IMG/VR virus record: IMGVR_UViG_2778261251_000018
Span: 1-8,887 of that record
Length of the DNA stretch: 8,887 bases
Origin: a virus
Taxonomy: Duplodnaviria > Heunggongvirae > Uroviricota > Caudoviricetes
Strand: one strand, 5' to 3'
Below the pieces are notes generated by a model. That model was given only the letters and a program-made list of their open reading frames with translations. It made no database searches and was not told the DNA's origin. This document shows, one piece after another, positions 1,753-8,096 of this stretch. The stretch's first letter is position 1. The number at the start of each line of letters is the position of its first letter. Both the position numbers and the translations under genes were made by a program.

Positions 1753-2345
1753 GATGTGTAATCCAGCAGCTGCGCGGCAGCATTTTCAGCGGCCTCCTGA
1801 GAGGCAAACGTGCGGAACAAAATATAATTCCACAGCACATCTAAAACGGCTGAATACAGTTGACCGAACTCAAGATCGTCCATCGCAGCAAACGAGATTG
1901 AACGAGGTACGCGCATCAAACTGCCATCCGGCATCTGATGAACGTCATAAAACCCAGCTTCCATAATCGCCCAGGCGCGAAACGCCTCGAACGACTTCAC
2001 CGCACTGATATTCCCCGCGCGCTTTTCCGACTCATCGAGAAGATACTGATCAGCCAGCTCTGCCATGACATCACCGTGTCCACCGTAATACGCCAGTAAC
2101 TTAACGTAGCCATGGACCAGTTCGCGCTCCGCAGGAGAAATAGCCCCTCCGGACGGATGCCAGTAATCAAAGCCCAGGTTTAGAAGTGAGAAAAATTTAC
2201 GATGAAACGCGGGATTACGCGCCTGTTTGAAATCTGCATACACAACAGCATCTGGTTTGACTCGTTCAGTCAACCAGCGTTGCGTGTCTGGTGTCGCGGG
2301 TATTAGCGAACCGCCGGATACCCTGATAAATGAATGCTGCGCCAT
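1749..2345 (-). CDS. nin-region phage protein, DUF1367-like, 198 aa
   Basis: ORF-track ORF. GGAG Shine-Dalgarno 8 nt upstream of the ATG at 2345. Translationally coupled to the DUF1364 gene. The DUF1367 label comes from remembered co-occurrence with DUF1364 in enterobacterial prophages and needs an HMM check. Confidence 0.6.
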   Translation of the reverse strand: MAQHSFIRVSGGSLIPATPDTQRWLTERVKPDAVVYADFKQARNPAFHRKFFSLLNLGFDYWHPSGGAISPAERELVHGYVKLLAYYGGHGDVMAELADQYLLDESEKRAGNISAVKSFEAFRAWAIMEAGFYDVHQMPDGSLMRVPRSISFAAMDDLEFGQLYSAVLDVLWNYILFRTFASQEAAENAAAQLLDYTS

Positions 2346-2374
2346 GTTTAACTCCAGGTGGCGCGGCAGTGCTC

Positions 2375-2406
2375 AGAAAATGGTGCCGGGTGTTCAGACC
2401 AGCACC
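2375..2406 (-). terminator. Intrinsic terminator between the small SOS-box gene and the DUF1367-DUF1364-Q operon (nin-region tR2-like)
   Basis: Minus-strand RNA GGUGCUGG-UCUGAACAC-CCGGCACC followed by AUUUUCU. 8-bp stem (7 Watson-Crick plus 1 G-U), 9-nt loop. The hairpin is better on the minus strand than the plus strand (G-U versus C-A). Confidence 0.45.
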
Positions 2407-2422
2407 AGTATTATACCGCGTA

Positions 2423-2602
2423 TTACGCGTCAGGGGGTGTAATAGTATATCCAGCTGTTTCTGCCAACTCGAGAAACGCCAGCAGGCTGGCAATCCGCTC
2501 GTCGTCGCTGAGGACGCGTACAATCACTACGCGCCCCTCTTCTCGTTTGATTACAGCCCGGCACGTATCCGGTAATTTGCTGATCGCCTCGTGTGTGTTC
2601 AT
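2423..2602 (-). CDS. Small hypothetical protein, 59 aa (MNTHEAISKLPDTCRAVIKREEGRVVIVRVLSDDERIASLLAFLELAETAGYTITPPDA), candidate SOS-induced regulator
   Basis: Not in the ORF track (below 60 aa); translated by hand. ATG at 2602-2600, TAA at 2425-2423. GGGGGA Shine-Dalgarno 5-10 nt upstream. Sits between a LexA-box promoter and a terminator, forming a self-contained transcription unit. Confidence 0.5.
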   Translation of the reverse strand: MNTHEAISKLPDTCRAVIKREEGRVVIVRVLSDDERIASLLAFLELAETAGYTITPPDA

Positions 2603-2620
2603 ATTTCCCCCTGACAGAAA

Positions 2621-2640
2621 CCCTGTATATATATACAGTA
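2621..2640. promoter_or_regulatory. LexA (SOS) box, perfect match to the CTGT-N8-ACAG consensus
   Basis: ccCTGTATATATATACAGta; core at 2623-2638 is CTGT + (AT)4 + ACAG, matching the E. coli LexA consensus TACTGTATATATATACAGTA. Overlaps the -10 of the minus-strand promoter. Confidence 0.75.
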
Positions 2641-2658
2641 TTTTTTATCGTATGTCAT
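2630..2658 (-). promoter_or_regulatory. Sigma70-like promoter for the 59-aa gene, with the -10 inside the LexA box
   Basis: Minus strand: -35 ATGACA (plus 2653-2658), 17-bp spacer, -10 TATATA (plus 2630-2635). Predicted start ~20 nt upstream of the ATG at 2602. Confidence 0.45.
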
Positions 2659-2715
2659 AACATCAAATGCAATGGGGGAATAATGAGCAATTATATTCAC
2701 CGCGTGAATTTGATT

Positions 2716-2746
2716 AAACGGTTTATTCCCGGAAAAAACGGTTTAT
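2716..2746. repeat. Tandem direct repeat of AAACGGTTTAT, two copies 20 bp apart
   Basis: Copies at 2716-2726 and 2736-2746. Each copy is internally near-palindromic (AAAC-G-GTTT). Located ~60-90 bp upstream of the LexA-box promoter and just past the stop of the 210-aa gene. Confidence 0.4.
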
Positions 2747-2751
2747 GGTTA

Positions 2752-3384
2752 TTATTTTTCATTTCCATAAACATGGGTTAACCATTTTCTAATAGTTGAC
2801 TCCGCCGGAACGTCAGCATATTTTTTTACGAGAATTTCGTTAATACGTGCCACCGCCGCACTAACCCGTGCGTGGGGATTATTTGTGAAAAAAACCTCTG
2901 CAATCTGTAATGCCTCGTCTTTTAGCCTGTGCTGTGGCCTCCCTCCGCCCTTTGTTCCCAGATAACGCGCCAGTTGTTTGAACCGGTACGCCACGATTAG
3001 TGGCCGCATCATCATATTGAAAAAATCACGTGCATCGTCGTCCTCTCCTCGCGCTATCAACAGCGCAAAAAACAGGTACGGTATTGTATATACGTCAGGG
3101 GAAATCATTACGCGCCTGCACACAGTCGGCGCCAGTGCGATCAGTGTGTCTGCCAGCGCGTCGCTCTCTCCTCCACGTTTGTAATACCGGTAGAGTGGTC
3201 CTAAGTCGAGTTCACTGGTATTGAATCCAGTCACAGCCTCACGAACCTCGTCTGCCAGCGCGTTGTAAATCGCCCCTGTACGTTTTGTGTAGAGTCTCCG
3301 GGTTGCCCCCCGGTTATCCAGCGCCCGCAGCATGTCAAGTCGGGTGACAAACGTTTCAGGCCAGTCCTCATAGAATGATCTCAT
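2752..3384 (-). CDS. Hypothetical protein, 210 aa; unknown-function accessory (moron-like) gene
   Basis: ORF-track ORF 2752..3420, trimmed to the ATG at 3384 (MRSFYEDWPE...), which has a GAGGTG Shine-Dalgarno ~7 nt upstream. The 12 extra N-terminal codons have no ribosome-binding site. No family recognised. Confidence 0.7.
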   Translation of the reverse strand: MRSFYEDWPETFVTRLDMLRALDNRGATRRLYTKRTGAIYNALADEVREAVTGFNTSELDLGPLYRYYKRGGESDALADTLIALAPTVCRRVMISPDVYTIPYLFFALLIARGEDDDARDFFNMMMRPLIVAYRFKQLARYLGTKGGGRPQHRLKDEALQIAEVFFTNNPHARVSAAVARINEILVKKYADVPAESTIRKWLTHVYGNEK

Positions 3385-3625
3385 ATCCACCTCGAATAAT
3401 AAAAACAGCACTATTTGCACAATTTATTATTCGTTGTCGCATCGCAGAGTTCTATAAAAAGAAAACCCGCCGAGTCAGGGTTTTGTTATGACTCGTGAAA
3501 CAACCATCCAAGTTTTTAGACTGAACGGTGATACTTGCAAATATTTGAAAATATGGGCTGGGCCCCTATCTTATGATGTGCCTGGTAATTTATATTGTTG
3601 GGTCTTTATATCATGAGGAATCACT

Positions 3626-6399: not shown

Positions 6400-7458
6400 T
6401 TAATCATGTAAAGAGCAAAATTCTTTCAAAATATCAAATCTACGCTGTCTGTTATGACTCTTCTTTGAACCCTCTTGGCTGAGGAATCTATATTCCTCAA
6501 CCAGTGGATGGGGGTTATCTTGTTCATTTAACTCATAAATATTAAAAAAATCCTCGAGCTTTGAACTAATAACATTCATATCAACAAGCTTAGATTTACT
6601 AAGCTGTAAATAATAGTATGCCAGCACAAATATAAAATACAAATGGCCTTTTTTCTTTACAACTGATTCTAATACTTGTTTATTGTTGATAATTTGAGAT
6701 ATGATCCTTAACACTTCGTTAAAGATAATTCTGTCCTCAGTCGCCTCAGGGTAATTCTCATTGTATTGATCATACACTCGATTAATTGATTTTTGTGTAT
6801 TATCCTGCTCAATACCCATTCGTAAGAAAATCAATAATGTGCTGATGAATTGAATGTCTTGCATCCGACGGATATCTGACTGAGTAAATATCTTATAATT
6901 ATCCCAAAATTCATTTTGTGCAATTTCTTCGGCTAATCTTAAAAACTCGCCATTAAATTCAGCATTACGAAGTTCTTGAGGATTTAACGTAGTATTTGTT
7001 CTATTTAGACGTAAAAATAACTTTGCAATCTCATCATATCTCAATGATTCATTAATAAATCTGGATGAGAATTGGTATCGCCAAAAATCACGTTTGTTAT
7101 CTGCCGACAATTCTGAAAAAATTTTCCCACTATAGTCGGCTTCTTTATCATCTATAGCTGCTTTGCTTAACTTAAACTCATCATTTAAATATCGCTGGAT
7201 TGTGGTTAGCCTTTGCTGTCCATCTACAATTGAATATTTAGTATCTCCAGTGTCAGGATCAGTATTATTTGCCCAAAGGTAAATCTCAGGGATTGGGTAG
7301 CCAATTAATATTGTCTCAATTAAGGCCACTTGGTCTTTTTGCTGCCAGATATATTTTCTCTGATATGAATTATCAACTGTAATAACACCTGATTTCAAAT
7401 TATCCGTCAACCATTTAATGTCTTTCGATTCAACTTTAATTAGATCAATAGCTCTCAT
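6400..7458 (-). CDS. DUF262 (ParB/Srx-fold, GmrS-like N-terminal NTPase domain) protein, 352 aa, without a recognisable DUF1524/HNH nuclease module
   Basis: ORF-track ORF. DUF262 hallmark motifs read directly: YQRKYIW (res 32-38) and DGQQR (res 79-83, nt 7210-7224). AGGA Shine-Dalgarno 9 nt upstream. ATG overlaps the NTase stop (ATGA). The C-terminal ~200 aa is low-complexity K/N/Y-rich, with no His-Me finger seen by eye. Confidence 0.85.
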   Translation of the reverse strand: MRAIDLIKVESKDIKWLTDNLKSGVITVDNSYQRKYIWQQKDQVALIETILIGYPIPEIYLWANNTDPDTGDTKYSIVDGQQRLTTIQRYLNDEFKLSKAAIDDKEADYSGKIFSELSADNKRDFWRYQFSSRFINESLRYDEIAKLFLRLNRTNTTLNPQELRNAEFNGEFLRLAEEIAQNEFWDNYKIFTQSDIRRMQDIQFISTLLIFLRMGIEQDNTQKSINRVYDQYNENYPEATEDRIIFNEVLRIISQIINNKQVLESVVKKKGHLYFIFVLAYYYLQLSKSKLVDMNVISSKLEDFFNIYELNEQDNPHPLVEEYRFLSQEGSKKSHNRQRRFDILKEFCSLHD

Positions 7459-8045
7459 ATCAATTGTCCTTGTAACTTATCTTTTAGACTATTCAACCCA
7501 GCTATGTGATAGCGTTCAACGGACTCCCAAGAGTCATAAATTCTGTAGTTGATGTCGTTAGGTATTCCAAAAATAGTTTGAATGTCTTTTTTTAATGGTT
7601 CAACGTTACGGGACCATTTATTAAAAAAATCGACTCTAATATCTAACTCCTTCAATGACACGAATCCTTTGAAAATATTTTTAGCTACAGGAGCATATAC
7701 AGGCAAATAATTCTTTGATTGTAATTCAATAAATGCCATCCAGGAAGATTTATAAATTCTGTCGGATACTAAAACCAAGTCTATATCTGACTCATCGTTA
7801 AATGTTCGATAATTTTTATCAGGGCTCAAGCTGAATCCCATCTTAGCACTTCCAACAATTGCAATATTATTTACATGAATTTCAAGCTTCTTAGACATAT
7901 ATAGCTTAAACTCATCATAATCTTTAGCAAAGGTTATTGATTTTTTTTGTTCCCGAAAATACCAAATGTCATGTCCTAAAAGGTATCGTTGGTAGACATC
8001 GCGGATATCGTCGGATAGTAGCTTTTCCTTAAATTCATTTAACAT
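7455..8045 (-). CDS. Minimal nucleotidyltransferase (Pol-beta superfamily, MNT/SMODS-like), ~196 aa
   Basis: ORF-track ORF 7455..8069 starts at TTG; the first ATG is at 8045 (MLNEFKEKLL...). Neither start has a strong ribosome-binding site. NTase signature read directly: IVGSAKMG (GS motif, nt ~7848-7856), then NDESDIDLVLV (acidic D-x-D pair, nt 7779-7787), then LDIRVD as a likely third acidic residue. Confidence 0.8.
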   Translation of the reverse strand: MLNEFKEKLLSDDIRDVYQRYLLGHDIWYFREQKKSITFAKDYDEFKLYMSKKLEIHVNNIAIVGSAKMGFSLSPDKNYRTFNDESDIDLVLVSDRIYKSSWMAFIELQSKNYLPVYAPVAKNIFKGFVSLKELDIRVDFFNKWSRNVEPLKKDIQTIFGIPNDINYRIYDSWESVERYHIAGLNSLKDKLQGQLI

Positions 8046-8096
8046 TTTCTTGTGCGCCCCTATTGACAAGAACTGTAGATTAGCTGTTACATTTCC

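Follow-up and report, generated by a model that had tools for sequence, protein, structure and literature searches.

Between positions 2375 and 2658 of an 8,887-nucleotide stretch of phage DNA (the window), a sequence resembling a LexA box stands before a small gene on the minus strand. Does a prophage use this gene to respond to DNA damage, and if so, on what might its product act? The initial annotation had proposed a consensus LexA box, and we confirmed it exactly: CTGTATATATATACAG at 2623-2638, read directly in the window, has the core CTGT-N8-ACAG. Read on the minus strand, the match is longer, TACTGTATATATATACAG (2623-2640), and the complete LexA (SOS) box, TACTGTATATATATACAGGG, occupies 2621-2640. 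The 20-nt LexA consensus is TACTG(TA)5CAGTA. With strength given as identity to this consensus, the box matched at 18 of 20 positions. In shuffled versions of the window, an exact CTGT-N8-ACAG was expected 0.09 times and appeared at least once in 16 of 200 shuffles, and the 18-mer consensus with at most three mismatches was expected 0.01 times by chance. No other exact LexA box occurs in the window, and the box is likewise the only one in about 49 kb of near-identical prophage (loci L001 and L003).

The minus-strand promoter that had been proposed to overlap the box was found in all its parts: a -35-like hexamer, ATGACA (2653-2658, read directly), a 17-nt spacer, and a -10-like hexamer, TATATA (2630-2635), that lies inside the box. 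It is not canonical and was missed by a sigma-70 consensus scan of positions 2100-3000, as the -10 hexamer has A in place of the final T. We regard ATGACA-N17-TATATA as a plausible noncanonical promoter. The hexamer ATGACA is kept in L002 (83% identical) and L007 (about 60%) amid variable bases, and the -10 site reads TATAAA or TATATA in related lineages. Promoter-like hexamers overlap or abut the LexA box in each lineage inspected, and a terminator precedes some of them, as in Gifsy prophages, where a promoter overlapped by a LexA box has been described (PMC3121763). At the level of sequence, a LexA operator overlaps the promoter of the candidate antirepressor unit. About 70 nt upstream of this promoter, also on the minus strand, lies a second promoter-like element, TTTAAT-N17-TATAAT (2690-2718). 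It contains the palindrome TTCACGCGGTGAA, and the 83%-identical relatives conserve it strongly amid variable adjoining bases. This element could be a LexA-independent promoter or the operator of another regulator.

The box recurs in diverged lineages. An exact copy is found upstream of the homologous small gene in L002, L007, L010, L011, and L018, in which protein identity is 37 to 76% and the flanks are unrelated. Its distance from the start codon varies, from 22 nt in L007 (CTGTATAAATATACAG) to 77 nt in L011 (CTGTATATAATTACAG), 104 nt in L018 (CTGTGTTTATATACAG), and 129 nt in L010 (CTGTTTATACATACAG); the box of L015, CTGGTTGGATATACAG, is about 175 nt before the start. All loci reached through distant homologs that retain the DUF1367 neighborhood carry a box upstream of the small gene, and their surrounding DNA is unalignable. 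An IMG/VR scan anchored on DUF1367 returned 80 loci, which we pooled with the window and six earlier loci. An ORF of the antirepressor family lies directly upstream of DUF1367 in 60 loci of the pooled set, giving 43 distinct protein variants. The box is exact in 32 variants, has the one-mismatch form CTGG...ACAG at the same place in 4, and is missing in 7.

One of the seven variants without a box is on a truncated contig, and the other six are a single lineage (L130-L142 and L154), which is marked by the C terminus AGYI[IV]T[IN]PDI and by an ORF that ends 73 nt before DUF1367. No LexA box was found within 550 nt upstream of the antirepressor ORFs of this lineage, nor was one found upstream of rem, a family member in the cryptic prophage Qin. 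These two cases suggest that the family is wired to different signals in different phages. A further family member, the 62-aa protein P0011 (L017, 4102-4290), is surrounded by genes for an integrase, AlpA, Bro-N, a DUF927 primase-like protein, and PerC. Neither a LexA box nor a DUF1367 gene was found at L017, which resembles a satellite or an island more than a lambdoid prophage.

The small gene itself was correctly described in the initial annotation. It occupies 2423-2602 on the minus strand, starts with ATG 20 nt past the LexA box, and is preceded by a G-rich Shine-Dalgarno sequence, GGGGG (2607-2611), 4 nt upstream of the ATG. Its 59-aa product matches phrog_340 (E = 2e-17), a family of unknown function in PHROGs. 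A word-indexed homology search returned just 5 close relatives; an exhaustive HMMER search reached the family, with 14 representatives, nearly all of 60 to 65 aa, that have in common the motif GRvvI..enG.V.s.Rv..dEHIAsL.aF.ElA..AGYti.PP. A tblastn search of phage genomes hit the Fels-1 ORF STM0898.2n. We identify STM0898.2n as FsoA because primers le154 and le162 (PMC3121763, Table S1) encode its N and C termini. The same table gives GftA as Gifsy-2 STM1020.1n, and a 28-nt gfoA probe from it located Gifsy-1/-3-like contigs in IMG/VR. On one of these, L021, the order is a LexA box (TACTGTGTTTATATACAGTA), dinI, a TTG-initiated ORF for an 82-aa GfoA-like protein, a hairpin with the loop CCTGAACAA, and irsA. 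The start of this irsA matches irsA primer pp644, and its product is a DUF1367 protein, 56% identical to that of the window.

The similarity to experimentally validated antirepressors is significant. Aligned with hhalign, the family profile matched FsoA of Fels-1 at 98.5% (E = 1.9e-15), the GfoA-like protein of Gifsy-1/-3 at 97.1% (E = 6e-11), and Rem of Qin at 91.8% (E = 7.5e-7); the match to GftA, the Gifsy-2 antirepressor, was not significant (3.3%). The 59-aa protein is 33% identical to the GfoA-like protein over 51 aa (BLASTP, E = 2e-9) and 49% identical to FsoA over 42 aa (tblastn). Weak or faint precomputed matches to the Pfam family Rem (PF27490) are present on relatives P0007, P0009, P0010, and P0012. 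A scan of the 59-aa protein with a copy of Pfam that lacks PF27490 gave no match even at E values up to 10, and NCBIfam and PADLOC scans gave none either. FsoA, GfoA, and GftA inactivate Gifsy repressors, and direct repressor binding was shown for GfoA and GftA (PMC3121763); Rem derepresses the DicA-controlled promoter dicBp 165-fold (PMC10448788). Taken together, these homologies support the assignment of the 59-aa protein to the Gifsy-type family of small antirepressors (FsoA, GfoA, Rem).

An AlphaFold2 model built from a 15-sequence alignment (pLDDT, 88.9) has the order helix, beta-hairpin, helix: a short helix, a beta-hairpin at residues 16-30, a 17-residue helix at 33-49, and an extended GYTITPP tail. 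The modeled protein is soluble, without a hydrophobic segment, and its size is in keeping with the range of about 60 to 85 aa of such antirepressors. The PDB yielded no meaningful match, by sequence or by fold, and there appears to be no solved structure for any member of the family. We rejected a small toxin as an identity for the protein, since the predicted model is soluble. The DinI-like modulator that had been raised as an alternative was set aside as well: the protein has no DinI or other Pfam match, and dinI in Gifsy is a separate gene that is absent here.

We identified the host element through near-identical prophages in complete genomes. The window has 99.4% identity with a lambdoid prophage of the pig Escherichia coli strains HCP5S3_I2, LCP30S3_I5, and ETEC1738, which sits beside a tRNA-Leu gene, on the downstream side of uvrC-pgsA. 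In 439 further complete E. coli genomes the 500-nt region is present in an 80 to 90% identical form, with the small gene annotated as "hypothetical protein." The genes of the prophage are ordered as an integrase gene, recombination genes, the repressor gene, a cro-like gene (YdaS), YdaT, replication genes, and a cargo region; there follow a 222-aa gene, the LexA box, the 59-aa gene, DUF1367, YbcO/DUF1364, Q, and holin genes. The copy in HCP5S3_I2 has several IS insertions and may be defective. Upstream of the box, the 222-aa gene (2752-3420, minus strand; phrog_5215) ends 113 nt before it, has no Pfam, NCBIfam, or PADLOC match, and is a constant neighbor of the LexA-antirepressor unit in the E. 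coli lineages (L002, L007-L009, and the window).

Within 6400-8069 on the minus strand, a 352-aa DUF262 protein matches PADLOC NsnA (E = 4e-41) and also PD-T4-2_A; translational coupling links its gene with a 204-aa gene of unknown function upstream, and the pair is probably anti-phage defense cargo. An IS3 element adjoins the DUF262 gene in HCP5S3_I2 and ETEC1738 and is absent from the window. Positions 1-77 have no match in the otherwise 99.4%-identical prophages of complete E. coli genomes, and the holin-like ORF at 47-292 encodes 81 aa in the window, versus 90 aa in complete genomes. This mismatch may mark a junction or rearrangement at the window edge.

The repressor gene lies outside the window. 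In the near-identical prophage of HCP5S3_I2 it encodes a 130-aa protein (WP_000853106.1) whose sole domain is HTH_3, and it has YdaS- and YdaT-like genes as its flanking neighbors. Over its full length this repressor is 33% identical to GtgR of Gifsy-2 (E = 5e-23) and 31% identical to DicA (E = 1e-15), which makes it a short repressor of the GtgR/GfoR/DicA type, without an S24 peptidase domain. L010, a distant relative of the locus, has an HTH_3 repressor as well, of 134 aa. Short repressors of the GtgR/DicA type are not cleaved in the SOS response and depend on an antirepressor (PMC3121763, PMC10448788).

The proposal that the small gene is an SOS-induced, LexA-controlled antirepressor was thus supported by homology to FsoA, the GfoA-like protein, and Rem, by synteny with Gifsy, and by the GtgR/DicA-type repressor. 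We consider it probable that the region serves a Gifsy-like lambdoid E. coli prophage with RacR/DicA-type immunity as its SOS induction module, with the 59-aa antirepressor under LexA control. In a lysogen, host LexA bound to the box, over the -10 and start region of a sigma-70 promoter, would keep the 59-aa gene silent. DNA damage would lead to RecA-stimulated self-cleavage of LexA, the promoter would fire, and the small protein would be made. The antirepressor, a function predicted for the 59-aa protein by homology with GfoA/GfhA, FsoA, and Rem, would then bind the 130-aa repressor, with its HTH, its C-terminal dimerization part, and no peptidase domain, and remove it from its operators, and lytic transcription would start. 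We infer LexA binding, promoter activity, and the interaction between the two proteins, including the target of the antirepressor. Antirepressors can act on noncognate repressors, so the true target could be in another prophage.

Downstream of the small gene, the minus strand carries a DUF1367 gene (1749-2345; Pfam PF07105, E = 4e-77), the irsA homolog of the locus, followed by a YbcO/DUF1364 nuclease-like gene (1459-1752) and the antiterminator gene Q (788-1459), the two together spanning 788-1752. The ends of these three genes overlap one another. Between the small gene and DUF1367, a stem-loop had been described as a terminator. The stem-loop is real and stable: at 2381-2407 (minus strand), the ViennaRNA fold has a 9-bp stem with the loop UCUGAACAC, followed by AUUUUCU (2375-2380). 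Its role as a terminator fared less well. A terminator scan of positions 2100-3000 did not call it, and it proved to be a conserved, covarying element of the DUF1367 leader. AUUUUCU follows the hairpin in the window and in L002, and the U-tract is missing or displaced in most relatives. As the U-tract is confined to the lineage of the window and the loop is invariant, a recognition or regulatory hairpin fits better than a simple terminator. In the lineage of the window, the hairpin may still stop part of the SOS-driven transcripts.

The conservation was assessed in 24 nonredundant DUF1367 leaders, which take in Gifsy-1-like and Gifsy-2 loci together with loci that have no antirepressor gene or LexA box. 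Six of seven hairpin pairs change on both sides; 92.6% of the hairpin cells are paired, versus at most 46% with the partner slid, and none of 500 shuffles reached the observed value. The 9-nt loop, YYTGAACAM, is invariant. A second helix (2340-2363, minus strand; RNAalifold) pairs CGCCA (2359-2363) with UGGCG (2340-2344) in the DUF1367 start-codon region and holds the Shine-Dalgarno sequence in its loop. It is 97.5% paired, versus at most 57% with the partner slid, and a C-G pair changes to U-A in step with the GCG or GCA second codon. Just upstream of the hairpin is a -10-like hexamer, TATAAT (2410-2415, minus strand), invariant as T-A-n-n-n-T across the family and always 5 to 9 nt from the stem. 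It is kept regardless of overlap with the antirepressor stop codon, also in loci without an antirepressor gene. Neither a -35 element nor an extended -10 element consistent across lineages was found for a promoter at this TATAAT.

The leader was observed at 2340-2415 of the window (minus strand), at 11700-11770 of L005, at 3020-3080 of L021, and at about 1420-1500 of L126-L159. Rfam 15 has no family for it; the sole match in the window was RsaE, with an E value of 0.43, far below the gathering score of that family. Tentatively, the hexamer, the hairpin, and the helix that would sequester the start codon might together be a cis-regulatory leader, so far undescribed, that precedes the DUF1367/irsA-Q operons of lambdoid prophages, a reading to which we give less than even weight. 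If it is true, the leader would gate the early or SOS-driven transcription and translation that reach the late-gene antiterminator Q; a phage or host factor could read it, as a new RNA for antitermination or translational control. The view of the region as a self-contained module became doubtful and is probably wrong: the hairpin is an element of DUF1367/irsA leaders, also at loci that lack an antirepressor gene, and irsA was described as belonging to a LexA-regulated operon (Lemire et al., PMC3121763).

The arrangement downstream leads to a different account of the locus, in which the LexA-controlled transcript mainly reads through the hairpin into DUF1367-YbcO-Q, SOS turns on Q directly, and the small protein is secondary. 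The end-to-end overlap of the genes from DUF1367 to Q would favor such a transcript. So would the lack of other stop signals: apart from the hairpin, with its weak U-tract that relatives do not conserve, no terminator-like site was found between the LexA promoter and Q in the scan of 2100-3000 or, for the rest, from the gene overlaps. The hairpin and the start-codon-sequestering helix are nevertheless conserved leader elements that look inhibitory, and the same leader exists without a LexA box or antirepressor gene upstream. We judge this account unlikely as the main function of the locus; read-through could coexist with an antirepressor role. It is less likely still that the small protein is SOS induced and acts otherwise, whether only on the repressors of coresident prophages, by DinI-like modulation of RecA, or as a small toxin. 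Our PDB searches found no structural analog that would fix the mechanism, which leaves room for this idea, but DinI and all other Pfam matches are absent, the predicted protein is a soluble helix/beta-hairpin/helix without a hydrophobic segment, its gene has the position of gfoA beside irsA, and the repressor of the prophage is of the class that requires an antirepressor.

The box itself might also be a fortuitous AT-rich palindrome, with the gene expressed from other signals, such as the element at 2690-2718. The bare core did arise in some of the shuffles noted above (16 of 200), the second promoter-like element some 70 nt upstream is conserved in close relatives, and both Rem and one homolog lineage do without a box. 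Chance would produce the full 18-nt consensus match far more rarely (0.01 times expected), however, and the box retains its position in lineages whose flanks have diverged beyond alignment; we consider a fortuitous box very improbable. The reading that we prefer is a LexA-controlled small antirepressor that would inactivate an uncleavable prophage repressor.

On this reading, phrog_340 would gain a function, and so would a gene that more than 400 complete E. coli genomes list as "hypothetical protein." The predicted route of induction for this group of E. coli prophages runs from LexA through an antirepressor to an uncleavable repressor, rather than through repressor cleavage of the lambda type. 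Which of the two routes a prophage takes, that of Gifsy or that of lambda, bears on how well induction by DNA-damaging antibiotics can be predicted and on cross talk between coresident prophages. The dinI-less arrangement is common, with a LexA box in 36 of the 43 distinct variants beside DUF1367. The analysis also exposed a conserved and so far unexplained RNA leader before the DUF1367-Q operon, which is the item most worth further work.

That of Gifsy is among the closest known systems. Judged by gene order, the window locus is the positional homolog of the Gifsy dinI-gfoA-irsA LexA operon, minus dinI. The small gene is located beyond the immunity region, after the replication genes and ahead of irsA (DUF1367) and Q (L001, L003, and L021), and gfoA likewise lies between the replication genes and Q, directly upstream of irsA. 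In both, a LexA box overlaps the promoter, the repressor is a short, uncleavable protein of the GtgR/DicA type, and a hairpin with a CUGAACA loop separates the antirepressor gene from irsA. The two proteins have in common the core and C-terminal pattern G-R-x-[LV]-I ... D-D-E ... G-Y-x-[VI]-T-P-P. They differ in length, 59 aa in the window versus about 80 aa for GfoA, whose N-terminal extension is missing from the window protein, and in start codon, which is ATG in the window gene and noncanonical in gfoA. The hosts are E. coli and Salmonella, respectively, and identity between the window protein and the GfoA-like protein is only about 33%. In the window the box is followed by the antirepressor gene, whereas Gifsy has dinI between them; we found no DinI-like ORF or Pfam match here. 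Nonpolar deletions of dinI and of irsA had no significant effect on induction (Lemire et al. 2011, PMC3121763). Since deleting dinI in Gifsy was without effect, its absence is no argument against function of the window locus.

FsoA of Fels-1 is the closest experimentally characterized relative in sequence, with proven antirepressor activity on GtgR, but fsoA is controlled by the Fels-1 repressor and not by LexA. Rem, from the cryptic prophage Qin of E. coli K-12, is of the same family as the window protein and is an antirepressor of DicA (PMC10448788). Like the window gene, rem stands directly before the genes that lead up to Q, and its target is a short repressor of the DicA type; Rem has 83 aa, however, and its downstream gene, ydfU, is not a DUF1367 gene. 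K-12 ybcN, considered as a comparator for DUF1367, was rejected because it belongs to another family. In wiring, the locus also resembles Tum of coliphage 186 and AntC of N15, in which LexA represses the antirepressor gene and SOS thereby leads to induction although the prophage repressor escapes cleavage. Tum has 146 aa and a DinI-like half, and both Tum and AntC are proteins that are unrelated to or larger than the window protein. Both are established LexA-controlled antirepressors (PMC3121763). Set beside these systems, the gene order and homologies support placing the locus in the known Gifsy-type induction system of LexA and antirepressor, as a new E. coli member that has no dinI.
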